A stretch of DNA of 64,000 nt from Parcubacteria group bacterium GW2011_GWA2_43_13. Its GTDB lineage: Bacteria; Patescibacteriota; Patescibacteriia; UBA9629; GWA2-43-13. The translations under genes were made by a program, and so were the position numbers. Below the pieces are notes generated by a model, which was not told the DNA's origin, made no database searches, and saw only the letters and a list, made by a program, of their open reading frames with translations. Within the stretch, counting starts at the first letter, position 1. The number at the start of each line of letters is the position of its first letter. This document shows, one piece after another, positions 3,804 through 58,020 of the stretch. The DNA is taken from the NCBI GenBank assembly GCA_000999025.1, contig LCFM01000005.1, forward strand, positions 7,087-71,086, in the 5' to 3' direction.

Positions 3804-5236
3804 AGATGTCGTGTTATGTTTAAAAGATGGTGCGGGATGCGCATGAGGTATATGAACGCGCAATAGAGGGTAGTATAGAGTGCGATTGTCGGGAATAAGC
3901 CAAGGCCGAGCGGTTTGAGAATAAGCGTAATGCCGATTGCTATGAGAAATATGCGCAGTGGATAGTGAAGATGAATAGCGCAGTTCGTTGTGCGTTGTAT
4001 TGTTTTCCACGAGGCAAAAGCAATGCCCGCTTCAGTGAGAATTGTGATAGTGGCCGCGGCGTAATATGAATACAGAGGAATAAAAATAAGATACGCGACA
4101 AGGGCCGACACCGCGATAATGATATACCATACAAGCATACTTTTTTGTTTATTGATACAGATAATCGTTTGCGTGAATGTGGCGCCGAGGAAAATAATCA
4201 TTGTCGCGCTCATGAGCATAACAAAGAGCGTTGAAAGAATATGAAGGTTTTGCGGTTGTGTTAGAAATTCTTTTCCCGCGACAAATTCCATAAAAGGCGA
4301 TGCGATGAGTATGGCTATGCCGATACATGGCGCGGCGATTAAGGATAATAATTGAAACGCCGCCTCGAGCAGTGCGTGGAACGATGGCGTATTACCTTCT
4401 GCCCAGTACGCGGAAAGGCGGGGGATGAATAGTCCCATAACAACAATCGGGATGGTTGTGAGCGTTTCAAGTATGCGGTATGGCACGCCGTACAAACCGA
4501 CATCGCTCATGGGTTTAAATAACGAGAGTATAATGCTGTCTGCTTTAACGTAAATGAGGGTGAAGAGGATGGACAGCGCTATGGGCCATGAAGTTTGTAT
4601 GGTACGAACGCATGCTTGTTTGCTGAAGCGCGGAATAATTGAGGTATATTTTTTTAGGAAAAAGAGATGCATGATCATGGTTGCGCATGATCCAACAATA
4701 AGAGCGACCAGGGATACAATAAGGGCAGATTGATTGTGCGTTTTGAATGCTGTAAAGACGATAACAAGCAGGAGGGTTCTGCCGATGATTTCAGCGTATG
4801 CGGAAAAATGCGTTTTAAAATGTGTTTGAAAGACAGCGCTTGAAAGTTGGGAAACGCTGTTGAATATATTAATGACTGCTGTTAGAAGAATTGCTATTTT
4901 AATGCCAAGCGCGTAGGGGAAGAATAGAATAATAAGAGGCGAGAGGAGGTACCATGCGGCACTGATTGCAATACGAGTGCCCAGTAATTCAGGAAAGTGG
5001 TTTTGGGTATCCTGATGTGGGGTGGAAAGTTCTTTAAGAGCAACGAGGTAAATACCCATATCAGCGATGATGCCGATTGATGTGACGAAAATTGTAATAA
5101 TGTGAAATTTCCCAAAATTATCAGGCCCTAACAGTCGTGTTAATACAAAAAGTGAGCATAAGCCCAATAAGGCATAGATCGCTTTACCGATAATTTGAAT
5201 TGCGCTGTGTACAGCTACTTTTTTAATAAAAGACAT
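3800..5236 (-). CDS. polysaccharide/O-antigen flippase, Wzx-like (MOP superfamily, multi-TM)
   Basis: 478-aa protein with about 12-14 predicted TM helices. N-terminus typical of Wzx/RfbX family. Adjacent to glycosyltransferase. Confidence 0.6.
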   Translation of the reverse strand: MSFIKKVAVHSAIQIIGKAIYALLGLCSLFVLTRLLGPDNFGKFHIITIFVTSIGIIADMGIYLVALKELSTPHQDTQNHFPELLGTRIAISAAWYLLSPLIILFFPYALGIKIAILLTAVINIFNSVSQLSSAVFQTHFKTHFSAYAEIIGRTLLLVIVFTAFKTHNQSALIVSLVALIVGSCATMIMHLFFLKKYTSIIPRFSKQACVRTIQTSWPIALSILFTLIYVKADSIILSLFKPMSDVGLYGVPYRILETLTTIPIVVMGLFIPRLSAYWAEGNTPSFHALLEAAFQLLSLIAAPCIGIAILIASPFMEFVAGKEFLTQPQNLHILSTLFVMLMSATMIIFLGATFTQTIICINKQKSMLVWYIIIAVSALVAYLIFIPLYSYYAAATITILTEAGIAFASWKTIQRTTNCAIHLHYPLRIFLIAIGITLILKPLGLGLFPTIALYTTLYCAFIYLMRIPHHLLNITRHL

Positions 5237-13328: not shown

Positions 13329-13367
13329 GGGACAGAACCGAAAATGATTTTTATAGAATATCAAAAA

Positions 13368-13402
13368 ATCACCATACCATGGTGATTTTTTGATATTGAA
13401 CT
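13368..13402. terminator. bidirectional rho-independent terminator (end of pilin operon and of the convergent 16S rRNA)
   Basis: AAAAAATCACCAT-ACC-ATGGTGATTTTTT hairpin with flanking A/T runs. Confidence 0.6.
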
Positions 13403-13628: not shown

Positions 13629-14483
13629 GATCGCGATATGTAACCTTCATTCGCACCCCACTGGACATGCGCTTCTCGCGCATCCAGCGAGTCCTTATAC
13701 ATTGATACTCTCCTTAAGGCGTTGGATTTTTTTACATCCATTATCAGTAAGATGTTGTTTATCGGCGATGAGAAAGGCGGCTTTACGAAAAAGAAGATAA
13801 TCTTTCCGTTTTTTTGCCTGTAGGGGATGCTTGTCAAAGAATGGAATAATATGTTCAACGATATCTTTAATATTTGAAACCTTTAGTTTGACGTGAGGTT
13901 TCCATTGAGCATATCGTTGATACTCCAATCTATAGAGATTTCCGCATCCTAATGTTTTTTGTATCGCTTGTAACACAGCACGATCATCTTCTTTGACTTC
14001 TATTTCAAAGAGGAGACGGACTTCTGATTTTCGGCGAAGTGTTTTGTGTTTGGCAATACTGATACAAAAACATCCTTCTCCATCTACGAACCCAACAATA
14101 TAATCAGGAGAAATGTGTAAGGTTTGTTCCTTCGTTTTTGGCATACTTATAAAGTATACCTCAAAACTACTATGAACGCAGCTGACTTCCTTTTAACCCA
14201 TCATTGGTTAACACGTTAAAAGGATCTCCCTGGGTTAGTGTATGAGCTATTTCCGACATTCCAAACGGGTTTTTAATGCTTACTTCCCATAGGTACACGC
14301 TATGATCGTAAACACCCTTATCGTGTTTGGGCTGTCATTTGTGTATAGAACCCTTCAGACATTCCCTTACGGGATATGTCCTGTTCGCAACTATTCCGCA
14401 CTCACTTTGGGGAATACCCCAAAGTGAGTGCGGGACAAGGATTTTCACCTTGTAGTTCATACGCCTGCCAGGCGCATTTAATT
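13629..14483 (-). mobile_element. intron in 16S rRNA (group-I-like) carrying a homing endonuclease gene, inserted between GGGCGGTG and TGTACAAG (E. coli approximately 1391)
   Basis: Conserved 16S sequence stops at 13628 and resumes at 14484. The intervening 855 bp contain the LAGLIDADG ORF. Confidence 0.8.
13695..14144 (-). CDS. LAGLIDADG-family homing endonuclease (single-motif)
   Basis: 149 aa. DYIVGFVDGEGCF motif (LAGLIDADG variant) near the N-terminus. Located wholly inside the 16S intron. Confidence 0.8.
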   Translation of the reverse strand: MPKTKEQTLHISPDYIVGFVDGEGCFCISIAKHKTLRRKSEVRLLFEIEVKEDDRAVLQAIQKTLGCGNLYRLEYQRYAQWKPHVKLKVSNIKDIVEHIIPFFDKHPLQAKKRKDYLLFRKAAFLIADKQHLTDNGCKKIQRLKESINV

Positions 14484-14546
14484 TGTACAAGACCCGAGAA
14501 CGTATTCAACGCGCCGTGGCTGATACGCGTTTACTAGCGATTCCGG

Positions 14547-14585
<39 letters not shown>

Positions 14586-14790
14586 GGTAGTTTTAAGGGA
14601 TTAGCTCCACCTCGCGGTTTGGCAACCCGTTGTACTACCCATTGTAGCGCGTGTGTCGCCCAGGACGTAAGAGCCATGCTGATTTGACGTCATCCCCACC
14701 TTCCTCCCTGTTAACCAGGGCGGTCTATTGTGGAAAGTAACACAATATAGGGGTTGCGCTCGTTTTCCGACTTAACGGTACACTTCACAG

Positions 14791-14821
<31 letters not shown>

Positions 14822-14915
14822 ATAGCACCCTCGAAGGCTTCCCGATTTCTCGGGATATGCAGCTATATGTCAAGCCCTGGTAAGGTTCCTCGCTTATCAT
14901 CGAATTAAACCACAC

Positions 14916-14985
<70 letters not shown>

Positions 14986-15793
14986 GGTACTTAACGCGTT
15001 AGCTTGGTTATAAGCACCTCTGGGAGGGTCGATACTCCCAAAAGCTAGTACCCATCGTTTACAGCGTGGACTACTGGGGTATCTAATCCCATTCGCTCCC
15101 CACGCTTTCGTCCATGAGTGTCAGAACTGTTCTAGCAAGCTGCCTTCGCCTTTGGTGTTCCGGCTGATATTAACGCATTTTACCGCTACACCAGCCGTTC
15201 CGCTTGCCTCTCCCAGTCTCGAGTTTGTCAGTTTTCCCCGCACTCTTATGGTTGAGCCACAAGATTTAACGAGAAACTTGACAAACAACCTGCGGACGCT
15301 TTACGCCCAATAAATCCGGATAACGCTTGAGGTCTCTGTATTACCGCTGCTGCTGGCACAGAGTTAGCAACCTCTTATTCGTAAGATACCTTCAGCCGAA
15401 GCTTATTCTCTTACAAAAGCCGTTTACAACCCGAAGGCCTTCTTCCGGCACGCGGCATTGCTCCTTCACGCTTTCGCGCATTGAGGAAGATTCTCGACTG
15501 CAGCCTCCCGTAGGAGTCTGGGCAGTTCTCAGTCCCAGTGAGGCGGGTCATGCTCTCACACCCGCTATCCGTCAGAGCCTTGGTGAGCTTTTACCTCACC
15601 AACAAGCTGATGGACCATAGGCCCCTCCTTTACCGCCGAAGCTTTCTTTTTCTTTCATATGAAAGAAAAACGTATGCGGTATTAGCCCGCCTTTCGGCAG
15701 GTTATTCCCCAGTAAAGGGTAGGTTACCAGTGTGTTACTCACCCGTTTGCCACTTGGCCTTGCGGCCACGTTCGACTTGCATGCCTAAGACAT

Positions 15794-15830
<37 letters not shown>

Positions 15831-16007
15831 ATAAAAGATTGTGATGCTTTTGTACACTATAGGCGCACCACGAACCTGAAAAATGTTGTATTTGGAATTG
15901 ACGTTGAGTTGGTCTATTACATTTCAGTTTTCAATGAACCGATACTCTTTTAACTAAAAACACAGAGGTCTTCTGTGCGTGATTTTTAGCTATGTTAAGA
16001 GCAGTAC

Positions 16008-18048: not shown

Positions 18049-20667
18049 TCAATGTTTTTCATTAATATCTTCAAGTTTTACTGAAAACAGTCGCGATGAT
18101 GCGTCTTCATTCATGGTAACTCCGTAGAGAAGGTTTGCTTTGTTCATTGTTGAGCGATTATGAGTAATGGCAATAAATTGTGTTATGTGCGAGAGCTCTT
18201 CTAAAATAGTTGCAAAGCGTTCGGAATTCGCTTCATCAAGAGCGGCGTCAACTTCATCGAGTACGATAAACGGAGCGGGATTTGCGGCGATAATCGCGCA
18301 CAAAAGCGCGATAGAAGTCAGTGAGCGTTCTCCGCCTGACAAAGCTCCTATGTTAGTGATTTTTTTATTTGGAGGGCATGCTATAATATCAATTTCAATT
18401 GTGCGTTGGAGGTTATTCGGCGGTGTTTCTTCTGCATCCTCTTGGCGTTCTTCGATTTTTTGGCGCTTGGTTTCTTTCCGATAGGAGAGAGCGGCTTTGC
18501 CACCGGTAAACAATATTTTGAAATAATGATTAAAATGTTCATTTATCTTTTTAAAACTGTGAGTGAATTGTGTTTCTATTTTTTCATCGAGTTCGTGAAT
18601 GATTTTTATAAGATGCGTATGCGACTCTTTTAAGTCAGTGGATTGATGTGATAAAAAGTCGTATCGTTGTTTTGCTTCTTCGTACTCTTCCATGATTCCG
18701 TCTTCAATATCTCCGATTTGGTTCACTCGTTTTTTTGCAGTTATCATGTGCTCTGCGAGCGCTGTCAGGTGTTCGTTCGAAAGCGAATACTCTTGTGTGG
18801 GCGTCATGATTGTTTCCCATATATCGCGCGGAACTTCTTGTTGTATTTCATTTTTAATATCTTCCGAACGTTGTTCAATCCGCGCTTGTTCAATGAGAAT
18901 GGTATGAACATACTGCTCTTTTGAAGATAGTTCAGTGTTAATGTCATGTGATTTTCGTTGAATCGCGAGCATCCTTTCTTTATTGCGGTGTTGTTGAAAG
19001 TGGTAGGTTGACAGTTGTTCTGAAATTTTTGCGTATTCAGCTTGATATTTTTTATACTCGGTCTTGAGTCGTTCTCCCATTGTTGTGAGCGATGTAATTT
19101 TTGTTTCCTTGGTCCCTGTTTTTTGAATGACCAATTTTTGAGACAATGCATGTTCTTCGCGAGTGATGCGATCGAGTTGCTCGCGGAGCAGTGATTTTTT
19201 TTGCTCTGTGATTTTTTGTTCCATTTTATTTTCTTGGATGATTGCCGATAGTTCTTCGGATTCGACGTGCGCGTGTTTTATTTTTTTTTGCAGGTTTTTT
19301 ATTTCTATCGTCGTGTCTTTATGAGGACGCAAAAGTTCGGCAACAGAAGTGAGGGTTGAAATGATTTTTTTTACTCTGCTGATAAGACCTTCTTTTTTTG
19401 AATTATTGACGAGTTCATCCAAAAGAATCGCGCATTCATGAGAAAGCGTTTCAATTGTTTGTCGCGCGCCATGGTGAGAGGTGTTCTGGTTCTGGTGTTG
19501 AAGGTGTTCGAGTGTGTGGGTATCTGCAGTAAGGGCGGATAGTATCGTATCGCGCTCAATCTCTGTATCTTTCATTATGAGAGCTGATTGGGTTGTTTGA
19601 TTTTTAATGTGTATGAGCGATTGTTCAGTTGTCGTTTTTTCTCCTTCTATTTCATGGAGTCGCCGATGTATCCAGGCGATATCTCCTTCGCCTTTGAGTT
19701 CATATTGATGTTCGATATCTTGTTGGATACGGATAATTTCATTGTCCTTTTCCCGCATAGCGGAAAGCGCACTGCGCTGAAGAGCCAAGAGGTGTTCATA
19801 TTCTTCTGTTGTGCCGTTTCCCGTCCCCAATAGCTGAAATTCTTTTTCTTGTTCTTGTTGCGTTTTTTTTAAAGAGATGAGTTCATCCTCTACAGCTGAT
19901 GCTCGTTGTATTTTTTCAGATAACTCTTGATGCAACGCAGACCACATTCCTCCATAGTATTGGGTTTGAATATCGCGGAGCGTGTGGATGTATTCTTCGC
20001 GCTGTTTCCACCGCCTTACTTGTCGTTCTAATAGATGGAGACGAGGAGTTGTCTCGTTTAACAGGAGATCTGTTTCTGCTAAATGCTCTGCCGTGCGTTC
20101 TAATGTACGGGCCGCGCTGTCGCGTTTGATTTGGTAGTGTTTAATCCCGGTTGCTTCGTCAAAAAAATCCTTACGCTCGTGCGGAGACGCAAGAAGGATG
20201 GTATCTATCATGCCCTGACCGATGACAGCGTAGTTTTTTTGTCCCACATTGGCTTGTGCTAATAGGAGTTGAATCGAAGAGAGGGGAGTGGGGATCCCAT
20301 TAAGAAGGTATTCACTTTCTCCATTGCGATACAAGCGACGGGTAATAATGAGTTCTTGGTATTCAATATCAGCAGAGCGGTCTCTGTTATCAATGGTGAT
20401 AGTGACCTCTGCCCGAGAGAGTCGAGATGCTTTTTGAGATCCTGAAAAAATAACATCTTCTGATTTTTTTCCTCGCAAGAGTTTTAAGCTTTGCTCTCCC
20501 AATACCCACCGAATGCCATCTGCGATATTTGATTTTCCCGAACCGTTCGGCCCGATGATTGCGGTAATACCTTTGGATTTTTTTTGTCCTGAAGGTGGCC
20601 GAAACTCAAGCACGGTTTTATTCGCAAACGATTTGAACCCTTGTATGGAAAGTTGCTTTAAATACAT
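18049..20667 (-). CDS. smc: chromosome segregation protein SMC (short form)
   Basis: N-terminal Walker A GPNGSGKSN after MYLKQLSIQGFKSF. Long coiled coils. C-terminal LSGGERSLTSIALLCAI signature and Walker B FIVLDEVDAALD. Start moved to ATG 20667. Confidence 0.85.
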   Translation of the reverse strand: MYLKQLSIQGFKSFANKTVLEFRPPSGQKKSKGITAIIGPNGSGKSNIADGIRWVLGEQSLKLLRGKKSEDVIFSGSQKASRLSRAEVTITIDNRDRSADIEYQELIITRRLYRNGESEYLLNGIPTPLSSIQLLLAQANVGQKNYAVIGQGMIDTILLASPHERKDFFDEATGIKHYQIKRDSAARTLERTAEHLAETDLLLNETTPRLHLLERQVRRWKQREEYIHTLRDIQTQYYGGMWSALHQELSEKIQRASAVEDELISLKKTQQEQEKEFQLLGTGNGTTEEYEHLLALQRSALSAMREKDNEIIRIQQDIEHQYELKGEGDIAWIHRRLHEIEGEKTTTEQSLIHIKNQTTQSALIMKDTEIERDTILSALTADTHTLEHLQHQNQNTSHHGARQTIETLSHECAILLDELVNNSKKEGLISRVKKIISTLTSVAELLRPHKDTTIEIKNLQKKIKHAHVESEELSAIIQENKMEQKITEQKKSLLREQLDRITREEHALSQKLVIQKTGTKETKITSLTTMGERLKTEYKKYQAEYAKISEQLSTYHFQQHRNKERMLAIQRKSHDINTELSSKEQYVHTILIEQARIEQRSEDIKNEIQQEVPRDIWETIMTPTQEYSLSNEHLTALAEHMITAKKRVNQIGDIEDGIMEEYEEAKQRYDFLSHQSTDLKESHTHLIKIIHELDEKIETQFTHSFKKINEHFNHYFKILFTGGKAALSYRKETKRQKIEERQEDAEETPPNNLQRTIEIDIIACPPNKKITNIGALSGGERSLTSIALLCAIIAANPAPFIVLDEVDAALDEANSERFATILEELSHITQFIAITHNRSTMNKANLLYGVTMNEDASSRLFSVKLEDINEKH

Positions 20668-26124: not shown

Positions 26125-27363
26125 ATGATTATTGGTATTGACTTTTCCCGCGGTGAGATGGAACATCGCACCGGTGTGGAGTGGTATAGTCATAATATTG
26201 TTAAGCATCTACTTGATCTCGGCGCAGAGCACGAGATTGTTTTATATTCACGGAGGGGTGGGGTTTCCTCGTGTTGTAGAGATGGGGTTAACCCTGTCTC
26301 TATGGTGCATCTTCGCTGGCCATTCCGATTCGGCTGGACCCAGTTTCGTTTATCATTAGAAATGGTTCTGCGTCCGCCAGATGTATTGTTTGTACCATCG
26401 TATATTTTACCACCCATAACACCTAAACGCGTGGTAACTATGGTGCATGATGTCGCGTTTAAACGCCATCCAGAATGGTATTCTCAAAAACAAATACGAG
26501 TATTGGAATTAGGGATACGAAGGATTATTAAGAAACGTGTTGTTGTATTAGTGCCAACGGAATTTGTGAAACGAGAATTATTAAAGTTGTATCCGGAAAT
26601 GTGCGATTTGGATATTCGTGTCATTCCACATGGCGTTGATCACACGTTGTTTCGTCGTCGTTCCCCCTCGCCTTTACAAGGAGAGTCCGCTCCGCCAGCT
26701 GGTGGATGGCAGAGGGGTGAGGTGGTGGATACGAAAGTAGTACCCCCATCCCCGTATTTCCTCTTCATCGGTCGCTTGGAAAGTAAAAAAAATATTTCCC
26801 ATATTGTGGATGCATTTGTAGAGTTCGTCGGCGACGTTCCCTCGCCTTTACAAGGAGAGGGAAGGGTGAGGTCTTACGTAAAATCCGGCGACGTAGAGAC
26901 GGGGTTTCCGCCAGAGGCGGATCACCCACAGGGGGAAACTCCGTCTCTACAGACATCTCTCCTCCTCGTCGGTCGTCCTGGCCATGGTTACGAAAGATTT
27001 GCTCATAAATTGAATCATCCCAATATTCATGTTATACCATCGGTATCAGCCGAAGAATTGGTAATACTCTATCAAAATGCAATCGCATTGGTATTTTCAA
27101 CATTATACGAAGGGTTTGGTATGCCCATTCTTGAGGCCATGGCATGCGGATGTCCGGTAATCACCTCAAAAGGCGGTGCGTACGAAGAAGTGGCAGGAAC
27201 TGCCGCGTTATTGGTTGATCCTCATAATATATTAGATATTGCGGATGCAATGATAAAGATTCAATCAGGGGGCTGGAAGGAAAAAGGGTTAAAAAGAGCG
27301 CATCAATTTTCATGGGACGCATCAGCCCAACAAACATTAGCACTCGTATGCAACAAATATTGA
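26125..27363 (+). CDS. glycosyltransferase family 4 carrying in-frame repeat insertions
   Basis: N-terminal GT4 domain and C-terminal EGFGMPILEAMACGCPVITS motif. The middle (26650-26990) is built from family-A and family-B repeats translated in frame (SPSPLQGE..., VPSPLQGEG..., DVETGFPPEADHPQGETPSLQT). Confidence 0.75.
   Translation: MIIGIDFSRGEMEHRTGVEWYSHNIVKHLLDLGAEHEIVLYSRRGGVSSCCRDGVNPVSMVHLRWPFRFGWTQFRLSLEMVLRPPDVLFVPSYILPPITPKRVVTMVHDVAFKRHPEWYSQKQIRVLELGIRRIIKKRVVVLVPTEFVKRELLKLYPEMCDLDIRVIPHGVDHTLFRRRSPSPLQGESAPPAGGWQRGEVVDTKVVPPSPYFLFIGRLESKKNISHIVDAFVEFVGDVPSPLQGEGRVRSYVKSGDVETGFPPEADHPQGETPSLQTSLLLVGRPGHGYERFAHKLNHPNIHVIPSVSAEELVILYQNAIALVFSTLYEGFGMPILEAMACGCPVITSKGGAYEEVAGTAALLVDPHNILDIADAMIKIQSGGWKEKGLKRAHQFSWDASAQQTLALVCNKY
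26276..26303. repeat. family-A element copy inside GT4 gene
   Basis: GTAGAGATGGGGTTAACCCTGTCTCTAT. Confidence 0.7.
26653..26727. repeat. family-B element copy (CGTCGTCG..CCTCGCCTTTACAAGGAGAG..GGTGGATGGCAGAGGGGTGAGGTGG)
   Basis: Shares the CTCCTTTACAAGGAGAG palindrome and GGGGTGAGGT tail with copies at 26826, 28191, 29295 and 50848. Confidence 0.7.
26826..26872. repeat. family-B element copy
   Basis: CGTCGGCGACGTTCCCTCGCCTTTACAAGGAGAGGGAAGGGTGAGGT. Confidence 0.7.
26893..26950. repeat. family-A element copy with 30-nt internal loop insert
   Basis: GTAGAGACGGGGTTTCCGCCAGAGGCGGATCACCCACAGGGGGAAACTCCGTCTCTAC. Confidence 0.7.
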
Positions 27364-28781
27364 TATTTATTGTATTGGTAAGTTTGCCAGCATATTTGAT
27401 TCGGTTTGAGGTTTTTGGTATTCCAACCACGCTTTTGGAAATGGGAATTTATGCGGTGGCGTGTCTCCCGCTTCTTTACAATGAGAATCCGCTCCGTCAT
27501 CTGGCGGATGGCGGAGGGGTGAGGTGGAAGAAGAGATTCGCTGAGATGTTCCATCTGTTCAAACCATACCTCTGGCCATTACTGCTCTGGCTGGGAATGA
27601 CAACAGTGTCTGCTATAGTGAGCGCTACGTACGGGGATTGGATGTTGGGTTTTGGGATTTTGAAGGGATGGTTTTTTGATCCATTGTTGTTGACGTGGGT
27701 GGTTATGGCGTGTAGAGACGTGGCGGTGCCGCGTCTCCGTGGGAACGTGCCAGGTGGAGACGCCCCAGCGAGGCGTCTCTACAATATGCGTCTATTACTC
27801 GCCACAGGCCTTCTTGCTTCTGCGCTTATAATCAGCGCGTATGGATTATTTGATTACATGATGGGTTGGACGCGTGATGGTAGGTTAGATGCATTTTTTA
27901 AAACTTCAAATTATGTGTCCATGTTTATTGTGCCGGTATTGATATTGGGAGTAGGAATGATTGTAGAGACGCCCCCCTGGGGCGTCTCCGTCGCGCGCTG
28001 GAAATCGGCGCTGATGATCATTGTCATGATTATGATAACTACCGCTCTTATCCTCACCAATTCTTTTGGCGGCTGGATAAGCGCGTTGATTGGGGTAGTT
28101 GTTTTTTTCGTTTTTTTCTTACGACACCAAACACCCCCTTCCTGTCCCTCTTCCCATCACAAGGATGGGGCACAGCAAGAGGGGAGCGATCGTCGTCCCC
28201 CTCTCCTTTATAAGGAGAGGGTAGGGGTGAGGTGTTGGCGCATAGTTTTTATACTCATATCTCTCATGGTTCTTGGTGCTTTCGTCTGGTACGGCTTACC
28301 CCGTCACTTTACTCACCGCAACGAATTTTTTAATGTAACATCTTCCCAACTGCGACAAAATTTATGGCGTGTGGCAGGGGATATGGTGCAAACCCATCCG
28401 ATACTTGGTGTGGGGCTGGGAAGATTTCAAAAAGAATTGCCAATTCTTATAAAACAAAAACCGCACCTTTTGACGGTTCAAACGATATTAGTTGATTTTC
28501 ATCTTCCGCATAATTTATATCTGACAATCGCATCAGAATCCGGGCTCATCGCCTTGCTTGGTTTTCTATGGTTTATCGGGTTATGGTTATGGCGTGGAGC
28601 AAAACAATACATATCAACCCGTGATCCTATACTTCTCGGCGCACTCTGCGCCATGCTTACTATTCTCATCCACGGCTTTGTAGACACTCCATATTTTAAA
28701 AATGATTTATCGATATTGTTTTGGATAGTAGTGGTGATTGGAGTTTTGTCATCCTCAGAACGGAAGTATACCGTTTTGTAG
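27312..28781 (+). CDS. O-antigen ligase/polymerase-like (Wzy_C family) polytopic membrane protein carrying five in-frame repeat copies
   Basis: Multi-TM. GVGLGRFQKEL...HLPHNLYLTIASESG resembles the O-antigen ligase domain. True start may be the ATG at 27348. Family-A copies at 27712, 27756 and 27963, and family-B material at 27503 and 28191, are all read in frame. Confidence 0.6.
   Translation: MGRISPTNISTRMQQILIFIVLVSLPAYLIRFEVFGIPTTLLEMGIYAVACLPLLYNENPLRHLADGGGVRWKKRFAEMFHLFKPYLWPLLLWLGMTTVSAIVSATYGDWMLGFGILKGWFFDPLLLTWVVMACRDVAVPRLRGNVPGGDAPARRLYNMRLLLATGLLASALIISAYGLFDYMMGWTRDGRLDAFFKTSNYVSMFIVPVLILGVGMIVETPPWGVSVARWKSALMIIVMIMITTALILTNSFGGWISALIGVVVFFVFFLRHQTPPSCPSSHHKDGAQQEGSDRRPPLLYKERVGVRCWRIVFILISLMVLGAFVWYGLPRHFTHRNEFFNVTSSQLRQNLWRVAGDMVQTHPILGVGLGRFQKELPILIKQKPHLLTVQTILVDFHLPHNLYLTIASESGLIALLGFLWFIGLWLWRGAKQYISTRDPILLGALCAMLTILIHGFVDTPYFKNDLSILFWIVVVIGVLSSSERKYTVL
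27712..27738. repeat. family-A element copy
   Basis: GTAGAGACGTGGCGGTGCCGCGTCTCC. Confidence 0.65.
27756..27782. repeat. family-A element copy
   Basis: GGAGACGCCCCAGCGAGGCGTCTCTAC. Confidence 0.65.
27963..27989. repeat. family-A element copy
   Basis: GTAGAGACGCCCCCCTGGGGCGTCTCC. Confidence 0.65.
28191..28232. repeat. family-B element copy
   Basis: CGTCGTCCCCCTCTCCTTTATAAGGAGAGGGTAGGGGTGAGGT. Confidence 0.7.
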
Positions 28782-28829
28782 AGACGGGGTTCCATAATCA
28801 CAAGGGCGTGGCAAGAACCCTGTCTCTAC
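28778..28829. repeat. family-A element (long-loop variant) at convergent gene junction; probable bidirectional terminator
   Basis: GTAGAGACGGGGTTCC...GAACCCTGTCTCTAC. Its GTAG and CTAC termini are the stop codons of the plus-strand gene (TAG 28779-28781) and of valS on the minus strand (28826-28828). Confidence 0.7.
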
Positions 28830-31660
28830 GCAAGCTTGTTTAATTTTTTTTGCGCTTGGTGGAGTTTAGATTGTTCGGTTTGTATGACTGCTTTGGGCGC
28901 CTTTGCGAGGAAATCTTGATTTGAAAGTTTTTGCTCAAGAGATGTGATGTAATGTTCCAATTCTTTTTTTGCTTTATTGATTTTTTTATCATCGCGCGGG
29001 ATGTGCAGGGTGAGGGAGATACCATGTTCGTGGATAGTGTGGCCTTGGGTGTTTGTTTTGGTTTGATTGATAAATGTTACGCGTGCCAGTTTTTCGATGA
29101 GGAGGATATTGGGGGATATTCGGCGTTGTAGAGACGGGGTTAACCCCGTCTCTACAACGAGCGACGGTTCTATTTTAAACTCCGCCCGCGCGTTGCGGAT
29201 GGCTGTGATGATGGCACGGATAGTGGCGTGGTGTTTGAGGGCAGGTGAGGATTTAATGGTTGGTGATTTGGGGTAGGGGGCGATGAGGATCAATGACGAC
29301 GACACACCCTTCTGCCCCCTCTTAATAGAGGGGGAAACATCGTCGTCGTCCCCCTCTCCTTTACAAGGAGAGGGTAGGGGTGAGGTTAAGGAGGGGGTGG
29401 TATTTAATTCTCCCCACACTTTTTCCGTAATAAACGGGATAAACGGATGCCAGAGGCGTAACAGAGTTTGTAAAATATATAATAATATTTCGTTTTTTCC
29501 CTGTTCAATCTTTACAATCTCCACATACCAATCTGCAAATTTATCCCAGGTGAATTCGCGCAATTTTTCTCCGGCTGGTGAAAATTCAAAATTATCCATG
29601 TGCTTGGTAACATCATGGATCAAGATATCTAATTCTGCCAAAATCCATTCATCACTTAATGTTTGTGCTTTTGGTTTTTTTTCTATCAACTGTGGTGTAT
29701 CAACGGTGGTAAGAATAAACCGCGAGATATTCCAGAATTTATTGATAAAATTCCTAAACCCTTCAATTTTTTCCTCATACATTTTTATGTCATTACCCGG
29801 GGTGGAGCCGATAATTAAGGATAATCGCAACGCATCTGTGCCGTATGTTTGAATCATCTCTACTGGATCAATCCCATTGCCTAATGATTTTGACATTTTT
29901 CTGCCTTCTTTATCCCGCACCATCCCGTGAAGATACACGGTTTTAAAGGGGATTTGTTTAGTGTTATAGGTTGTCATTAAAATCATACGCGCAACCCAAA
30001 AGAATAAAATCTCATACCCTGGCGCCATGACTGAAGTTGGGTGGAATGTTTTAAAATCAGGCGAGCGTTTCAGCCATTCGGCAAGGGATTCATCTTTTTT
30101 TATTTTCGTATCAAGTAGGGTTGAAAATGTCCACAAGGCAGACGAGAACCATGTGTCCAATGTGTCCGGGTCCTGGGTAAACGTGGTGCTTCCACAGCGC
30201 TTGCATTTTTTAGGTTGCTCAATACTGGCGAGCGGGGGGCACGATTTTTTGATTTCGTCCGCCAGCTGGCGGATCGGATTTCGGATTTTTGTTTCGCAAT
30301 ACCAAACCGGCACTCTGTGTCCAAACCAAATTTGGCGGGAAATGCACCAGTCCTGTAAATTATTTATCCAGTGAAAATATGTTTTTTTAAATCTGCTCGG
30401 CAAAATTTCAATATCCTCGGATTTAACCACATCAATGGCAACTTCCTTGAGTGTTTTCTTTTTTCCTTTCCATACAACAGCTGGTTTATCCACGCTCATA
30501 AACCATTGCAAAGAAAGATACGGCTCAACCACTGCATCACAACGATAACAATGCCCAATATTATGTATGTGTTTTTCTGTTTTTTTCAGCAGTCCACGTT
30601 GTTGTAATTCCTCAATAATAAGTTTGCGAGCATCAGCAACAGCCCAGTTTTTGTATTTTCCGCCGTGATCATTGAGTGTGCCGTCAGGGTTGAGGATATT
30701 GATATATGCAAGATTGTGGCGTTTAGCGATTTGATCATCATTAAAATCATGCGCAGGAGTTACCTTTACCGCGCCGGTTCCAAATGAGGGGTCCACATGT
30801 CTGTCCGCAATGATTGGAATTTCGCGATTTGCAAGCGGAAGGGTAACAGTTTTGCCAATAAGATGTTTGTATCGTTCATCTTTTGGGTTGACTGCAACGG
30901 CCGTGTCGCCGAGCATGGTTTCCGGACGGGTTGTTGCGACGGTTATTTTGCCCCCCCCTCCTAAGGTAGGATGGGGTGGGGGGAGGTCTGAATTTTTTAT
31001 CGGATAATCAATATAATACAATATTCCTTCTGTTTCCGCGTATTCCACTTCGTCATCCGCAAGCGTGGATTCACATCTTGGACACCAATTGACCAACCGA
31101 TTGCCGCGAACAATCAATCCGTCGTTGTACATGTTTACAAATACTTTTTGTACGCATTTGGTAAGCACAGGCGACATGGTATATGCTTCGCGCGACCAAT
31201 CGCAACTTGCGCCTAATTTTCGCAGTTGATGTTCTATGGTTGTTTTTGATTCTTCAACATACTGATTCACGCGTTCCAAAAATTTTTCACGCCCTAAATC
31301 GTGCCGGGTTTTTCCTTCTTGCGAGATTAGTTTTTCTACCTTATTCTGAGTGGCAATAGCGGCATGATCCACACCCGGCACCCATAGTGTTTTTTCTCCT
31401 TTCATGCGGTGATACCGTACAATCACATCGTGCAGAGATGTTTCCATGGCATGGCCAAGATGCAACACCCCGGTTGCGTTCGGCGGTGGCATCATTAAAG
31501 AGAATGGCTTTATCTTTTTTCCTGAATAATGATCTGGATTAAAAAATCCTGACTGCTCCCATTGTCGGTATATGCCATCCTCAATTTTTTGAGGATCGTA
31601 TTGTTTGGGTAATTCGGCCTGTTTCCGCGTTTTTGATAGTTTTTTAGTGCCTTTTTTCAT
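28826..31660 (-). CDS. valS: valine--tRNA ligase
   Basis: HIGH (PNATGVLHLGHA) and KMSKS (KMSKSLGNGIDP) motifs, editing domain. 944 aa including approximately 60-80 aa of repeat-derived insert near the C-terminal coiled coil. Confidence 0.95.
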   Translation of the reverse strand: MKKGTKKLSKTRKQAELPKQYDPQKIEDGIYRQWEQSGFFNPDHYSGKKIKPFSLMMPPPNATGVLHLGHAMETSLHDVIVRYHRMKGEKTLWVPGVDHAAIATQNKVEKLISQEGKTRHDLGREKFLERVNQYVEESKTTIEHQLRKLGASCDWSREAYTMSPVLTKCVQKVFVNMYNDGLIVRGNRLVNWCPRCESTLADDEVEYAETEGILYYIDYPIKNSDLPPPHPTLGGGGKITVATTRPETMLGDTAVAVNPKDERYKHLIGKTVTLPLANREIPIIADRHVDPSFGTGAVKVTPAHDFNDDQIAKRHNLAYINILNPDGTLNDHGGKYKNWAVADARKLIIEELQQRGLLKKTEKHIHNIGHCYRCDAVVEPYLSLQWFMSVDKPAVVWKGKKKTLKEVAIDVVKSEDIEILPSRFKKTYFHWINNLQDWCISRQIWFGHRVPVWYCETKIRNPIRQLADEIKKSCPPLASIEQPKKCKRCGSTTFTQDPDTLDTWFSSALWTFSTLLDTKIKKDESLAEWLKRSPDFKTFHPTSVMAPGYEILFFWVARMILMTTYNTKQIPFKTVYLHGMVRDKEGRKMSKSLGNGIDPVEMIQTYGTDALRLSLIIGSTPGNDIKMYEEKIEGFRNFINKFWNISRFILTTVDTPQLIEKKPKAQTLSDEWILAELDILIHDVTKHMDNFEFSPAGEKLREFTWDKFADWYVEIVKIEQGKNEILLYILQTLLRLWHPFIPFITEKVWGELNTTPSLTSPLPSPCKGEGDDDDVSPSIKRGQKGVSSSLILIAPYPKSPTIKSSPALKHHATIRAIITAIRNARAEFKIEPSLVVETGLTPSLQRRISPNILLIEKLARVTFINQTKTNTQGHTIHEHGISLTLHIPRDDKKINKAKKELEHYITSLEQKLSNQDFLAKAPKAVIQTEQSKLHQAQKKLNKLA
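29128..29155. repeat. family-A element copy (canonical) inside valS
   Basis: GTAGAGACGGGGTTAACCCCGTCTCTAC perfect 28-bp palindrome. Translated as VETGLTPSL. Confidence 0.8.
29295..29386. repeat. family-B composite element inside valS
   Basis: GACGACGAC...CCCCCTCTTAATAGAGGGGG...CGTCGTCGTCCCCCTCTCCTTTACAAGGAGAGGGTAGGGGTGAGGT. Translated (minus strand) as SPLPSPCKGEGDDDDVSPSIKRGQKGVSS. Confidence 0.7.
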
Positions 31661-31760: not shown

Positions 31761-32897
31761 TTATTTTAGCCGCAGATTTGGATCTGCGGTTATTTTTCTG
31801 TAATCTGTTTTTTGTTTTGAGTATTTTGTTTTTACCAATGCGGCGATGGCGATCATGGCGGCGTTGTCAGCCGAGGTGCCGGGGAGAGGGAAGCGGAGAT
31901 CAGTTTTCGGTTTTCGGTTTTCAATTTTCAGTTTTTCTGTGAGTTGGTTTCGGAGGTGTTGATTTGCGGCGACACCGCCACCGACAACAAGGGTTTTAAT
32001 ATGGTAGTGTTCAACTGCTCGCAGGGTTTTTATAACTAACACATCAATTGCCGCGTTTTGAAATTCGCATGCGACTTGCGCGCGATTATAATCGGGGTGT
32101 TTTTCTATCAAATATCGCACTGCGGTTTTAAGTCCCGAGTAACTGAAGTTGAAGTCAGGAGAATCAATCATCGGGCGAGGGAATGTTATGGGCAATCCTA
32201 ATCTACTAATAACATCCGAATCTACGAATACGGGGCTGTCGTCTGTAGAGACGGGGTTAACCCCTCTTCTATGGTGTATTATTTGTAGATTAGGATGCAT
32301 TCGTATATTGGGATTGCTCCATTCGGATGCCTCTTGTTCTATCGCTGGACCGCCAGGATAGGGAAATCCTAAGAGTTTTGCTACTTTATCAAATGCTTCG
32401 CCCACCGCATCATCAATCGTTGTCCCGATAATCTCAAAATCATAGTGCTGTTTCATAAGCACCAATTGCGTGTGTCCGCCAGATACCAACAGCGCAAGCA
32501 CGGGAAATTGAAAATCATCAACATTTTTTAGTGTTGAGTAAATATGGCCAGCCATGTGGTTTATAGGAATGAGCGGTTTATTCCATGCCAGTGCCAGCGT
32601 TTTTGCCGTCTCTACGCCGATATGCAATGCCGCTATAAGACCGGGGCCCTGCGTTACGGCAATGCCGTCTATATTTTGATACGAAATATGAGCGGCATCA
32701 AACGCTTGTGTGATAACAGGGATGATATTGAGGATATGGTTACGCGCGGCAATTTCCGGTATGACGCCACCATATTGTGCGTGAATTTTGGCTTGCGATG
32801 CGATGATATTTGACACAATAGCAATAGCACCATTTGTTTCTTGTACAATGGCGGCCGCGGTTTCATCGCATGATGATTCAATTCCAAGGATGATCAT
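31761..32897 (-). CDS. tsaD: tRNA N6-adenosine threonylcarbamoyltransferase TsaD (Kae1/YgjD family) carrying in-frame repeat insertions
   Basis: MIILGIESSCDETAAAIV..., HMAGHI and GGVAAN motifs. Start moved to ATG 32897. Contains a nested family-C/family-A insert (32192-32316) and a family-D heptamer array (31897-31945). Confidence 0.9.
   Translation of the reverse strand: MIILGIESSCDETAAAIVQETNGAIAIVSNIIASQAKIHAQYGGVIPEIAARNHILNIIPVITQAFDAAHISYQNIDGIAVTQGPGLIAALHIGVETAKTLALAWNKPLIPINHMAGHIYSTLKNVDDFQFPVLALLVSGGHTQLVLMKQHYDFEIIGTTIDDAVGEAFDKVAKLLGFPYPGGPAIEQEASEWSNPNIRMHPNLQIIHHRRGVNPVSTDDSPVFVDSDVISRLGLPITFPRPMIDSPDFNFSYSGLKTAVRYLIEKHPDYNRAQVACEFQNAAIDVLVIKTLRAVEHYHIKTLVVGGGVAANQHLRNQLTEKLKIENRKPKTDLRFPLPGTSADNAAMIAIAALVKTKYSKQKTDYRKITADPNLRLK
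31897..31945. repeat. family-D heptamer tandem array (CAGTTTTCG GTTTTCG GTTTTCA ATTTTCA GTTTTTC)
   Basis: Five degenerate 7-mer units, in frame in the tsaD C-terminus. Related arrays at 16414, 16851 and 51996. Confidence 0.6.
32192..32316. repeat. composite nested element: family-C palindrome with a family-A element (32245-32272) inserted at its centre, inside tsaD
   Basis: GCAATCCTAATCTACTAATAACATCCGAATCTACGAATACGG-[GTAGAGACGGGGTTAACCCCTCTTCTAT]-...ATTTGTAGATTAGGATGCATTCGTATATTGGGATTGC. Compare the insert-free copy at 26029-26122. Confidence 0.75.
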
Positions 32898-33090: not shown

Positions 33091-33094
33091 CATA

Positions 33095-33130
33095 TAAAAT
33101 AACCGCCGTAAAAGCGGTTATTTTATATTA
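33095..33130. terminator. rho-independent terminator after tRNA-Glu
   Basis: AACCGCCGTAAAAGCGGTT hairpin followed by ATTTTATATT. Confidence 0.6.
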
Positions 33131-37150: not shown

Positions 37151-38185
37151 ATGAATACTTCATTGTTTGATTATCATCTTCCAAAAGAGCTCATAGCTCA
37201 TGAGCCAATAACACCCCGCGATTCAGCGCGGGTGTTTGTTGTGGAGGGGGAGGTGCGTCATCATGATTTTTTTTATAATATTGGGAAATATGTTAAAAAA
37301 GGCGATATTCTTGTGCGTAATGTTACAAAGGTGTTTCCAGCGCGTCTTTATGCTACAAAAATGACTGGAGGTAAGGTAGAGATTTTATTAGTCCGTCCAT
37401 TAGACGGTTCTCGATGGGAGTGTTTAGTAGGGGGACGCGCAAAAGACGGGATGGAGGTGCGATTCGATTGTAGAGACGTGCCCTTGGCACGTCTCTCGGA
37501 AACGCCCCAGGGGGGCGTCTCTATGATATGGATTATAGATTTCGGGCAAAATATAGATAACCTTGGAACACTCATTGAAACCGCAGGTCAAACGCCCGTG
37601 CCACCATATATTCACACCGATATGGCGGAGCAGGAATTGCGCGACCGATATCAAACAATATATGCGCATAAAAGTGGTTCAGTGGCGGCGCCAACCGCTG
37701 GCCTGCATTTTACTGATGAATTGATAGATCAGTTGAAACGCCAAGGTATTGAATTTTTAGACATTATTTTGCATGTGGGGATTGGCACTTTTTTGCCTGT
37801 AAAAACGAAAAACGTAGAAGATCACTCTATGCATGCCGAGTATGTAGATATCTCAAATGAGGTTGCACAAAAAATATGTTCAGCAAAATATGAAGGCCGA
37901 CGTCTCATCGCTATTGGAACAACTACGACCCGTGCGCTTGAGGCGTGCGCAGATACACTGTTATTAGGTAAAGGATATACAGGCGAGGTGAATATATTTA
38001 TAACGCCTGGATACGAGTTTCGTATGATTGATGGATTGGTGACTAATTTTCATCTTCCAAAATCAACATTACTCATGCTGGTTTCTGCGTTTGCAGGCCG
38101 TGAAAATATCCTTTCTTGTTACCAAGAGGCCATTGCATTGGGCTACACATTTTACTCTTTTGGTGATGCAATGCTGATAAGTTAA
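37151..38185 (+). CDS. queA: S-adenosylmethionine:tRNA ribosyltransferase-isomerase QueA carrying two tandem family-A insertions
   Basis: MNTSLFDYHLPKELIAHEPITPRDSARV... and conserved QueA blocks. 37469-37523 translates as DCRDVPLARLSETPQGGVSM. Confidence 0.9.
   Translation: MNTSLFDYHLPKELIAHEPITPRDSARVFVVEGEVRHHDFFYNIGKYVKKGDILVRNVTKVFPARLYATKMTGGKVEILLVRPLDGSRWECLVGGRAKDGMEVRFDCRDVPLARLSETPQGGVSMIWIIDFGQNIDNLGTLIETAGQTPVPPYIHTDMAEQELRDRYQTIYAHKSGSVAAPTAGLHFTDELIDQLKRQGIEFLDIILHVGIGTFLPVKTKNVEDHSMHAEYVDISNEVAQKICSAKYEGRRLIAIGTTTTRALEACADTLLLGKGYTGEVNIFITPGYEFRMIDGLVTNFHLPKSTLLMLVSAFAGRENILSCYQEAIALGYTFYSFGDAMLIS
37469..37495. repeat. family-A element copy
   Basis: GTAGAGACGTGCCCTTGGCACGTCTCT. 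Confidence 0.65.
37498..37523. repeat. family-A element copy (partial left arm)
   Basis: GAAACGCCCCAGGGGGGCGTCTCTAT. Confidence 0.6.
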
Positions 38186-38988: not shown

Positions 38989-39000
38989 AATAAATATTAA

Positions 39001-39031
39001 AAAACGGCCATTTCTATCGGCCGTTTTTTAG
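39001..39031. terminator. bidirectional terminator between convergent genes
   Basis: AAAAACGGCCATTTCTATCGGCCGTTTTTT. Confidence 0.6.
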
Positions 39032-39559: not shown

Positions 39560-39636
39560 TGGGAGGCAACGGCGGGAATCGAACCCGCGTATAAGGGTTT
39601 TGCAGACCCATGCCTTACCACTTGGCTACGTTGCCT
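39560..39636 (-). tRNA. tRNA-Cys (anticodon GCA), CCA encoded
   Basis: Reverse complement AGGCAAC...GTTGCCT acceptor. Anticodon loop CTGCAAA at standard positions 32-38. T-loop GGTTCGATTCC. 3-bp D-stem. Confidence 0.7.
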
Positions 39637-39811
39637 CTCACTCGATTGAATCGCTCCGCACCTTTCCGTTCAATGGGTTTTGGTATTCAACGGAAGAGAG
39701 CGAAGCGGCTCCGCCTCACATCTATGATTTTAAAGAAGATCATTCGCGAGAAAGGTGTGGGGTTGCAGACCCCATGCCTGACCATTGTTGGTTTGTCATT
39801 TGTGTCGGCTT

Positions 39812-39839
39812 GCAGAGACGGGGTTAACCCCGTCTCTGC
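39812..39839. repeat. family-A element copy (GCAGAGACGGGGTTAACCCCGTCTCTGC) in the polA upstream region
   Basis: Canonical centre GGGGTTAACCCC. Located between tRNA-Cys and the polA start. Confidence 0.7.
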
Positions 39840-39957
39840 AACTAAAAACACATCAACTGTACCAAGATTAGTGCCAAAATGCAACTATTCAAAAAGGATG
39901 GAGGAAGGTATACTGGTTGGAGTAATACCACCTCATCTCTCTTGGGGAGGCCGAACT

Positions 39958-43655: not shown

Positions 43656-43665
43656 TATAAAAATA

Positions 43666-43693
43666 ATGAGACGCCCCAACGGGGCGTCTCTAC
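43666..43693. repeat. family-A element copy at convergent junction holA/rpsT; probable bidirectional terminator
   Basis: ATGAGACGCCCCAACGGGGCGTCTCTAC, 10 bp after the holA stop and 12 bp after the rpsT stop. Confidence 0.7.
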
Positions 43694-47330: not shown

Positions 47331-47413
47331 ACAGAATGTAAAAAGTAAAATGGCAAAGTAAAATTTAAAGAGAAAGATTTTTATATTTTACATTGTCATT
47401 TTACTATTTTATT

Positions 47414-50068: not shown

Positions 50069-51155
50069 TTATCATAATTTGTTTGATGATACTTGATTTA
50101 TACAGTTCCGGTTTATAGGCGTCTAATCGGAGAACGTGGGTTTTAAACCCGCGTTCTTTTAGTTCTTTGCGCAGTTGAGTTTCGCTATATGCTTGGTCAT
50201 ATCCTAAACAGATTAGATTTGGAGAATATTTTTTAATCAATGCAAAGTAATCAGTTTCATCGCCGATATATGCATCATCTACATACTTCAACGCTTTAAT
50301 GTGTTGAAGTCGTTCTTGTTGCGTATAGATTGGTGGTTTCTTTTTTTGTTTCATAACATTGTTGTCTGTTGTAATAACAACAATCAGCTGGGAGCTGAAT
50401 TTTTTTGCCTGCTGAAAAAAATATTCATGGCCTTTGTGGAGTAGGTCGAATACGCCAAAGACCATGACTGTAGAGTTTGTATGGGGTGGTGGGAGAGTGG
50501 GTAGTGTGATTGCGTCGTCCAATGTGAAATCACCAATCGCGGTGCGGCTGAGGGATGTAAGATACGCGCCGTATCCGAGTGATTTGCCGATGTCATGACC
50601 AAGCGTGCGGATATAGGTTCCGCTTGAACAATGCACGTCTATTGTGAGATGTGGCCATTTATATGAGATGAGATCAATAGAATAGATTTCTATCTCATGC
50701 GGTTTGCGTTCTATCTCTTTGCCTTGGCGGGCAAGCTCATAGAGTTTTTTTCCATTCACTTTTTTTGCTGAGTACATGGGAGGGGTTTGGAGTTGGCGAC
50801 CGAGAAAGGAGGATAATGTGGTTTCGAGTTCGACTGTTTTTTCTAATACCTCACCCCAACCCTCTCCTTGTAAAGGAGAGGGGGTTACGACGCCCGTTTT
50901 ATCCTGCGTGTCGCTGGTTGCGCCTAAAAAGAGGATTGCGCGGTATTTTTTATCTAACCCAACAAAGTATTTTAATAATTTAGTAGAGGACCCAATAGCC
51001 ATAATCAACAACCCGTCTGCAAACGGGTCAAGTGTTCCTGCATGGCCAATCTGTCTGATGCCAGTGATACGGCGGAGCTGGTTGACTATGTCATGCGATG
51101 TCGGGCCAGCAGGTTTATTGATGAGTAAAAATCCATTCATACTGCCAGTTTTCAA
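50034..51155 (-). CDS. truB: fusion protein: tRNA pseudouridine(55) synthase TruB catalytic domain + C-terminal cytidylyltransferase-like nucleotidyltransferase domain (RibF FMN-adenylyltransferase-like)
   Basis: N-terminal 225 aa are TruB (LLINKPAGPTSHDIV, GHAGTLDP catalytic Asp motif) with a family-B insert. C-terminal approximately 140 aa (from MVFGVFDLLHKGHEYFF, ...YKSSIIKQI) have HxGH and ISSTxIR-like nucleotidyltransferase motifs. No PUA domain and no riboflavin-kinase domain. Confidence 0.7.
   Translation of the reverse strand: MKTGSMNGFLLINKPAGPTSHDIVNQLRRITGIRQIGHAGTLDPFADGLLIMAIGSSTKLLKYFVGLDKKYRAILFLGATSDTQDKTGVVTPSPLQGEGWGEVLEKTVELETTLSSFLGRQLQTPPMYSAKKVNGKKLYELARQGKEIERKPHEIEIYSIDLISYKWPHLTIDVHCSSGTYIRTLGHDIGKSLGYGAYLTSLSRTAIGDFTLDDAITLPTLPPPHTNSTVMVFGVFDLLHKGHEYFFQQAKKFSSQLIVVITTDNNVMKQKKKPPIYTQQERLQHIKALKYVDDAYIGDETDYFALIKKYSPNLICLGYDQAYSETQLRKELKERGFKTHVLRLDAYKPELYKSSIIKQIMIITPLVVHSTHL
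50848..50891. repeat. family-B element copy (reverse orientation) inside truB
   Basis: ACCTCACCCCAACCCTCTCCTTGTAAAGGAGAGGGGGTTACGACG. Translated as TPSPLQGEGWGEV. Confidence 0.7.
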
Positions 51156-58000: not shown

Positions 58001-58020
58001 TGAATAAAGTTGTAAAGATA

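Follow-up and report, generated by a model that had tools for sequence, protein, structure and literature searches.

One palindrome, two stop codons: probable double-foot GTAG REP elements in a Candidatus Jacksonbacteria genome

How can one short palindrome come to end two genes? The question is raised by positions 28778-28829 of a 64,000-nt stretch of DNA from Parcubacteria group bacterium GW2011_GWA2_43_13 (contig LCFM01000005.1, positions 7,087 to 71,086; here called the window, GC content 0.43), where a single hairpin separates the gene for an O-antigen ligase-like protein (Wzy) from the valyl-tRNA synthetase gene valS and supplies the stop codon of each. The hairpin belongs to a dispersed group termed family A. 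Its members are probably “double-foot” GTAG repetitive extragenic palindromic (REP) elements, spread by a REP-associated tyrosine (HUH/Y1) transposase (RAYT) and expanded in Candidatus Jacksonbacteria, the clade of the host within the Candidate Phyla Radiation (CPR, or Patescibacteria). Five proteins encoded in the window are identical to proteins recorded for this bacterium or for Candidatus Jacksonbacteria. The features that meet at the locus, drawn from the sequence, the list of open reading frames (ORFs), and orthologue comparison, are:

28778-28829, no strand assigned: long-loop double-foot REP, forming the whole Wzy-valS intergenic region
27312-28781, plus strand: O-antigen ligase-like gene (Pfam Wzy_C), whose stop is the TAG of the REP; it holds two further REPs
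28826-31660, minus strand: valS, whose stop is the TAG of the REP on the minus strand; it holds one REP and a family-B palindrome

The original prediction placed the ends of both genes inside the palindrome, and the sequence and ORF list confirm this. The stop TAG of the Wzy-like ORF (28779-28781) lies within the GTAG at 28778-28781, and the CTA that ends valS (28826-28828) lies within the CTAC at 28826-28829. The palindrome is 52 nt long, and the 44 nt separating the two stops consist entirely of it. As was also claimed, the terminal GTAG and CTAC read TAG in one frame on each strand, and both TAGs are real stops here. TAG is an ordinary stop in the window, where it ends 8 of 41 large ORFs. 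The structure is composed of GTAGAGACGGGGTTC, a 22-nt loop, and GAACCCTGTCTCTAC, with arms that pair with one G-T, and its RNA folds at -32.3 and -30 kcal/mol (z about -5).

The history of the locus can be approached through relatives syntenic with the window. Two of these, metagenome loci L038 (with L039) and L041, carry valS homologues of about 84% identity (P0002 and P0003, respectively), and the outgroup L164 carries one of about 60% (P0004); identities give the tree (window,(L038,L041)). At its end, valS reads ...KLA-TAG in the window. The L041 gene reads ...KLM-TAG, with the stop inside a degenerate copy, GTAGAGACAAGGCTGTGCCGCGTCTTA, while in L038 the gene ends one codon earlier (...KL-TAA), without a palindrome. 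The Wzy C-terminus is equally long in the window and L041. One or two small ORFs lie between valS and Wzy in relatives and are missing from the window. The valS-side arm and the “loop” of the window copy align with the decayed REP of L041 and its downstream flank, and the Wzy-side arm is extra relative to L041. By this alignment, the valS-side arm appears to be an old REP common to L041. The window copy would then be a hybrid left by a deletion that ended in or at REP sequence, with one hairpin now giving both stops.

Family A has the unit TGTAGAGACG-[variable stem-loop]-CGTCTCTACA, and there are 11 copies in the window, counting two degenerate in-gene copies (26276-26303 and 32245-32272) that a simple scan overlooked. 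Chance would give 0.03 occurrences of the motif GAGACG-N8-38-CGTCTC, and 8 are present; for AGAGACG the expectation is 3.9 and the count 18. Seven of the 11 copies lie in frame inside genes and four are intergenic (418, 28778, 39812, and 43665). The ten copies other than that at 28778 are:

418-446, minus: single REP with the GTAG foot on the minus strand only, 8 nt after the gene at 455-2641 (minus) and upstream of a tRNA (251-337, minus); terminator-like on the minus strand
26276-26303, plus: degenerate REP GTAGAGATGGGGTTAACCCTGTCTCTAT in a GT4 glycosyltransferase gene, reading CRDGVNPVS
26893-26950, plus: long-loop REP VETGFPPEADHPQGETPSLQ in the glycosyltransferase gene
27712-27782, plus: REP doublet with GTAG feet outward in Wzy, reading CRDVAVPRLRGNVPGGDAPARRLY
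27963-27991, plus: single REP with a degenerate right foot in Wzy, reading VETPPWGVS
29128-29155, minus: perfect REP in valS, with 18-bp arms counting the flanks (29124-29159)
32245-32272, minus: degenerate REP in tsaD (31761-32897, minus), reading RRGVNPVST
37470-37524, plus: REP doublet CRDVPLARLSETPQGGVSM in queA
39812-39839, no strand assigned: REP variant with GCAG/CTGC feet, intergenic between a tRNA (39564-39635, minus) and the polA start at 39958
43665-43693, minus: single REP between convergent holA (end 43655) and rpsT (stop 43705), with GTAG and a T-rich tail on the minus (rpsT) strand only

The core of the element is 28-29 nt and most copies measure 28-31 nt, with long-loop forms and doublets of 52-71 nt. 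Three stem types are present in the window (GCCCC-N3-GGGGC, GGGGTTAACCCC, and GTGCC-N3-GGCAC), and the flanks of copies prolong the palindrome (T...A, GTT...AAC). The hairpins fold at -19 to -45 kcal/mol with z scores of -4 to -6. A GTAG foot is found on the plus strand in 9 of 11 copies. In the copies at 418 and 43665 the left foot is degenerate (AATG, ATAG), so that only their minus strand has an intact GTAG. Both feet of one copy read GCAG. The double foot GTAG...CTAC is present in the copies at 26893, 27712-27782, 28778, and 29128. Inverted doublets are seen at 27712-27782 and 37470-37524, at L041 11584-11656, and at 18872-18943 and 21803-21880 of L166, and two more intergenic doublets lie in the 9.7 kb to the left of the window. 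No Rfam family matches the palindromes. In valS, the REP at 29128-29155 encodes VETGLTPSL within the linker that joins the anticodon-binding domain of valyl-tRNA synthetase to its C-terminal arm; one REP-encoded peptide of the enzyme is IEPSLVVETGLTPSLQR.

Two candidates from the census were set aside. A pair of GTAGAGACG sites 360 nt apart (32245, 32615) had the look of a long element, and the second site proved to be the conserved tsaD motif IGVETAK. Placement of the 39812 copy inside polA was ruled out by the true start at 39958 (the 906-aa DNA polymerase I of NCBI) and by the tRNA at 39564-39635. An older annotation, KKS93910.1 (1022 aa), stretches polA over the tRNA and the REP (39610-39957), an extension helped by the REP keeping the upstream frame open; the later OGY68778.1 (906 aa) starts at 39958. 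Just upstream of this REP, a stretch of about 32 nt (GGGGTTGCAGACCCCATGCCTGACCATTGTTGG, 39752-39790) resembles part of the same tRNA (GGGTTTTGCAGACCCATGCCTTACCACTTGG) and may be a duplicated tRNA fragment of the kind left behind by integration.

The identity of the family is indicated by its occurrence elsewhere. The base of the hairpin, GTAGAGACG-N8-14-CGTCTCTAC, is found in at least 120 metagenome contigs with GC contents of 0.29-0.66. The search pattern itself fixes the outer GTAG...CTAC of all 135 metagenome copies, and the inner 8-14 nt are almost always self-complementary, with a sequence that differs from contig to contig. Clustering the ORFs of these contigs yields one family directly tied to the palindrome, in which homologous ORFs of about 200 amino acids contain it in 10 contigs (L043, L045, L060, L061, L075, L088, L090, L095, L112, and L139). 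All nine of these ORFs that were tested match a single NCBIfam model, NF047646 (REP-associated tyrosine transposase), with E values of 1e-10 to 1e-17, and match Pfam Y1_Tnp weakly. A profile of the palindrome-bearing ORFs finds at least 7991 homologues, many of which bear the JGI label “REP element-mobilizing transposase RayT”; those with NCBI names are from Bacteroidota. In 95 of the best 120 (P0121-P0240) of the at least 7991 homologues, the palindrome peptide lies between PNHxHG (HuH) and FxWQxRF (WQ/Y). Among these 95, the palindrome is read as VET....SL in 89 and as RD....VST in 6, and the use of two frames indicates that the conserved object is the DNA and not the peptide. Short tandem repeats (DGRN.., TNTN.., PPPP, VDTVNA..) usually surround the REP within the transposase gene.

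This arrangement matches that of TnpA_REP subclass 2.4, or RAYT group 4, described by Quentin et al. (2018, PMC6006769). Transposases of this subclass are about 194 aa long with NH[IFV]H, WQ, and YIxNNP motifs, and their REPs are double-foot (5′ GT[AG]G and 3′ C[TC]AC) and lie in frame between HuH and Y. The match, a palindrome within a transposase ORF bearing these motifs, holds for the palindrome family at large. A REP inside its transposase gene is already published for subclass 2.4; what is striking is the scale, at 95 of the best 120 homologues. The same authors suggested that an inverted dimer becomes a double-foot REP when its centre is deleted, and the series of doublet, long-loop, and compact forms in family A fits this suggestion.

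The copies also resemble the GTAG-tagged REPs surveyed by Di Nocera, De Gregorio and Rocco (2013, PMC3733652), which are short GC-rich hairpins with a terminal GTAG and G-T pairs, fall into subfamilies through compensating stem changes, and occur as singles and head-to-head dimers. Those elements lie beside the 3′ ends of unidirectional or convergent ORFs, within 20 bp of both ORFs in the convergent case, and often provide TAG stops for the flanking ORFs from their termini. Copies in frame within genes, including those for tRNA synthetases and Pol I, encode 10-30 residues. In most of the GTAG-tagged families the tetranucleotide is unpaired and at one end, whereas in the window it pairs with CTAC. 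The survey reports tagged REPs from eight phyla and does not mention CPR, and the intragenic share in the window (7/11) is unusually high. REPs lie mainly outside genes, downstream of ORFs; of the window copies, 4 of 11 are extragenic, 3 of those 4 at gene 3′ ends, and intragenic REPs are known from other species (PMC3733652).

Other known systems are approached in part. Like REP doublets forming hairpins (REPINs) and bacterial interspersed mosaic elements (Bertels and Rainey 2011, PMC3116915), family A includes inverted REP pairs with a short spacer and the potential for long hairpins (27712-27782, 37470-37524, and L166 18872-18943). REPINs are replicating units of intergenic DNA in Pseudomonas (PMC3116915), whereas several doublets here lie in ORFs and most copies are singlets. 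The Rickettsia palindromic elements (RPEs), as cited in PMC3733652 from Ogata et al. (2000), are likewise in-frame palindromes in functional genes of a reduced genome. This likeness is one of behaviour only, as the sequences are unrelated and RPE-1 is much longer; RPE-4 and RPE-6 belong, in the account given in PMC3733652, to a CGTC super-family and not to GTAG. Full-text literature searches with the 9-mers GTAGAGACG and CGTCTCTAC returned only primers and Alu-related papers, and the Alu link was discarded, Alu containing GTAGAGACGGGGTTTC by coincidence. Literature searches found no relevant report of in-frame palindromes in CPR and no paper tying CPR/Patescibacteria to REP, REPIN, or RAYT elements.

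With GTAG read in this way, the two stop codons find an explanation. The conservation of GTAG stems from its role as guide tetranucleotide in REPs that RAYT transposases recognise (PMC6006769), and the stop codon is a by-product. The original prediction held that in-gene copies avoid the frame in which a terminus reads TAG. The tally of three copies in the VET... frame, four in the CRD... frame, and none in the TAG frame agrees, but as a test it is circular, since any intact ORF must comply. When a copy falls in the TAG frame, it persists only at the outermost 3′ end of a gene and takes the place of the stop. Among the metagenome copies, ORFs of at least 100 codons end on the REP TAG at 12 strand-ends, mostly in high-GC contigs. 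No enrichment is claimed from these, because high-GC contigs are expected to hold long spurious ORFs.

A different answer is that the palindromes are kept as bidirectional terminators bringing their own stops, so that function explains both conservation and placement. This was the proposal of the original prediction, and it now seems rather unlikely as an account of the family. Three of the four intergenic copies do follow gene ends, five in number, at distances of 0-11 nt. As claimed, gene ends adjoin the copies at 43665-43693 and 418-446, 8-11 nt away; of the spacings given for the former, 10 nt after holA stands, and the 12 bp to rpsT measures 11 nt. The hairpins of intergenic copies fold at -19 to -32 kcal/mol, and a simple terminator scan passes the 418 and 43665 copies when they are read on the minus strand, the sole strand on which those copies keep GTAG. 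In metagenome contigs with GC of 0.52 or less, intergenic copies are arranged convergent, tandem, and divergent in the ratio 10:12:2, and 27 of about 99 copies lie inside ORFs. REPs are also reported, in work cited in PMC6006769, to attenuate transcription and stabilise mRNA.

Against this, 7 of the 11 window copies lie in genes, where a terminator would be harmful, and orthologous in-gene copies decay. The bidirectional claim is weakened by the tails. Two copies alone, 418 and 43665, have a T-rich tail, in each case on the minus strand and not on the plus strand. Tails in both directions are seen in no copy, and the 28778 copy has no U-tract in either direction. The copy at 39812 is located in a divergent promoter region, and other convergent junctions use classical A-tract/hairpin/T-tract terminators (38998-39030, 13357-13397, and about 58.0 kb). 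The copies resemble Rho-independent terminators as GC-rich hairpins at gene 3′ ends, two of them with a T-rich tail on one strand, and differ in having no conserved U-tract, a mostly intragenic placement, and a foot conserved across phyla. An identical 9-bp foot in many phyla and inside transposase genes points to recognition by a protein. A 3′-end role is plausible for some copies, and termination in one direction is plausible for the rpsT (43665) and 418 copies from their tails, without this defining the family.

Comparison with relatives shows how the REPs have spread and decayed. Across 22.6 kb of the syntenic outgroup L164 there is no copy of family A, which indicates that the family expanded within the Jacksonbacteria clade. 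GTDB genomes found via valS are relatives of at most 53% identity, none with the element. In L038 and L041, individual copies are shared, lacking, or reduced to fragments. The queA REP has decayed orthologous copies in both and is absent from L164, and the tsaD REP segment (32245-32272) is missing in L164. At glycosyltransferase site B (26893) the window has a full copy, L038 only the left arm GTAGAGACGGGGTT, and L041 and L164 none. At the valS linker site the window copy is a single, L041 has a doublet of 73 nt, and the single of L038 has decayed; the stem subfamilies differ between the sister genomes. L038 is almost without intact copies and retains left-arm remnants, GTAGAGACGGGGTT at glycosyltransferase site B and GTAGAGAG at Wzy site 1, where the window REPs are full. 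This pattern suggests loss of REPs by internal deletion in the L038 lineage.

Several observations weigh against a family of RAYT-spread REPs. By tblastn, no RAYT gene was found in the window, in the 9.7 kb to its left, or in about 0.5 Mb of Patescibacteria loci. Subclass 2.4 is described mainly from Cyanobacteria and Bacteroidetes (PMC6006769), and the available Jacksonbacteria DNA yielded no such transposase. A RAYT-like tblastn match beside a REP doublet in L166 (E 0.44) was rejected as noise, the adjacent ORF being without RAYT motifs. The NF047646 scores of the palindrome-bearing ORFs, 40-62 bits, are under the curated 80-bit cutoff, and the upper stems found in the window (GCCCC.., GGGGTTAACCCC, GTGCC..) differ from those of RAYT-bearing contigs. 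Assemblies L162 and L163, which are 99.9% identical, carry identical copies and show no sign of recent movement. The deletion and hybrid origin of the 28778 copy depends on a short alignment of about 37 nt. Finally, REP-bearing segments are no longer than the unrelated, REP-free ones of relatives at queA (aa 106-126), Wzy site 2 (aa 217-226), and the valS linker (aa 834-855); the queA segment is 19 aa in L038 (CREVPMARFTKQRCVSTTW) and also 19 aa in L164 (SQTIPDATLFCANKTTQEW). Such equal lengths are not what plain insertion predicts. They may reflect later compensation in loop length, an older REP that was shared and has since decayed, or a mechanism of overwriting. We nevertheless infer that a RAYT acted in this lineage.

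The last of these options can be taken further. In this CPR lineage, copy-overwrite (gene-conversion-like) events in place of insertion could maintain and alter the REPs with no transposase in the genome, with REP-to-REP deletion then shaping minimal intergenic regions. It draws on REP segments being as long as or shorter than REP-free ones and on the differing stem subfamilies at the valS site, and we hold it to be quite improbable. If true, it would account for minimal intergenic regions in which one hairpin supplies both stops and a shared 3′-end structure.

Miniature inverted-repeat transposable elements, that is, non-autonomous derivatives of a DDE-type insertion sequence with the terminal inverted repeat TGTAGAGACG, would have the inverted termini, shortness, dispersal, and long-loop versions of 52-58 nt seen here. 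Such an origin is very improbable. No direct repeats or target-site duplications are seen in the examined flanks of any copy, most copies are only 28-31 nt and so under the size of these elements, and the gene recurring with the palindrome encodes a Y1/HUH transposase and not a DDE enzyme. The idea that the palindromes arise in place, selected for the peptide they encode (VET..SL and CRD..VST recur in several proteins) or as restriction-modification sites (each copy has two CGTCTC sites, and GAGACG/CGTCTC is the Esp3I/BsmBI site), is hardly credible. The DNA is read in two frames and from both strands, and copies also lie outside genes; there is no relationship among the host proteins, and 17 of 18 AGAGACG sites lie in family-A copies, the other (32607-32613) being a conserved tsaD codon run, so that the 7-mer is not enriched elsewhere.

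Returning to double-foot REPs spread by a RAYT, a course of events can be proposed. The element would be a hairpin with the base GTAGAGACG/CGTCTCTAC and a variable upper stem and loop. By the mechanism known from the literature, a RAYT (HUH/Y1) would recognise the folded single-stranded hairpin with its GTAG guide and act without target duplication. Elements would have multiplied within the Jacksonbacteria clade and survived only where harmless, downstream of genes or in a stop-free frame in tolerant loops and linkers. In-gene copies would be carried as 10-25 extra residues and decay later, and where a copy landed in the TAG frame right at a gene end, it would replace the native stop. At 28778, a deletion in or at REP sequence would have removed the small ORFs and left a single hairpin to supply both stops. 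Any role in transcription termination or mRNA 3′-end protection would be secondary.

The stop-codon idea itself is already published; what is new is the CPR host, the mostly intragenic placement of the copies, and the clade-specific expansion. A lineage with genomes of about 1 Mb is added to the hosts of REP biology. Most copies lie in core genes (valS, queA, tsaD, glycosyltransferase, and Wzy), in parallel with the RPEs of Rickettsia. That two lineages with reduced genomes run in parallel suggests that tolerant loops in proteins serve as a refuge for such elements when there is little intergenic DNA. The palindromes account for part of the lineage-specific insertions in the proteins examined, and they can mislead gene callers, as in the 1022-aa polA annotation. 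REP repeats might contribute to breaks in metagenome assemblies.

Within L162, one of the two 99.9% identical assemblies, which are from groundwater, an extra imperfect duplication of about 54 nt (4315-4367, compared with about 28292-28318 of the window) splits Wzy into two ORFs. It is either a strain variant or an assembly artefact.

A second palindrome family, family B, consists of CCCTCTCCTTTAYAAGGAGAGGG followed by TAGGGGTG and occurs at 28197-28229, 29350-29382, and 50852-50884, with weaker copies at 26668-26685 and 26839-26862. It too is found in genes, reading PPLLYKERVGV in Wzy and, on the other strand, SPLPSPCKGEGD in valS, and in the canonical orientation it lacks a GTAG foot at the 5′ end. 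In relatives it lies at other sites, such as the L038 glycosyltransferase gene and the valS genes of P0002 and P0003. The valS gene of the window also contains a GC-rich palindromic insert on the minus strand, CTCCCCCCACCCCATCCTACCTTAGGAGGGGGGGGC (30950-30985), which encodes LPPPHPTLGGGG and is absent from all aligned valS homologues. The zinc-knuckle region of valS (alignment columns 471-500) is completely different among three close relatives.

Classical bidirectional terminator-like structures, with an A-tract, a perfect stem of 13-19 bp, and a T-tract, are located at 38998-39030, 13357-13397, 33092-33128, 47340-47409, and about 57990-58030, mostly at convergent junctions, and illustrate the form that such terminators take in this genome. 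The 16S rRNA match at 14449-15836 covers model positions 1-1533 in only 1388 nt, and a perfect 17-bp palindrome (CCGCACTCACTTTGGGG/CCCCAAAGTGAGTGCGG, 14396-14433) lies 15 nt from the 16S 3′ end.

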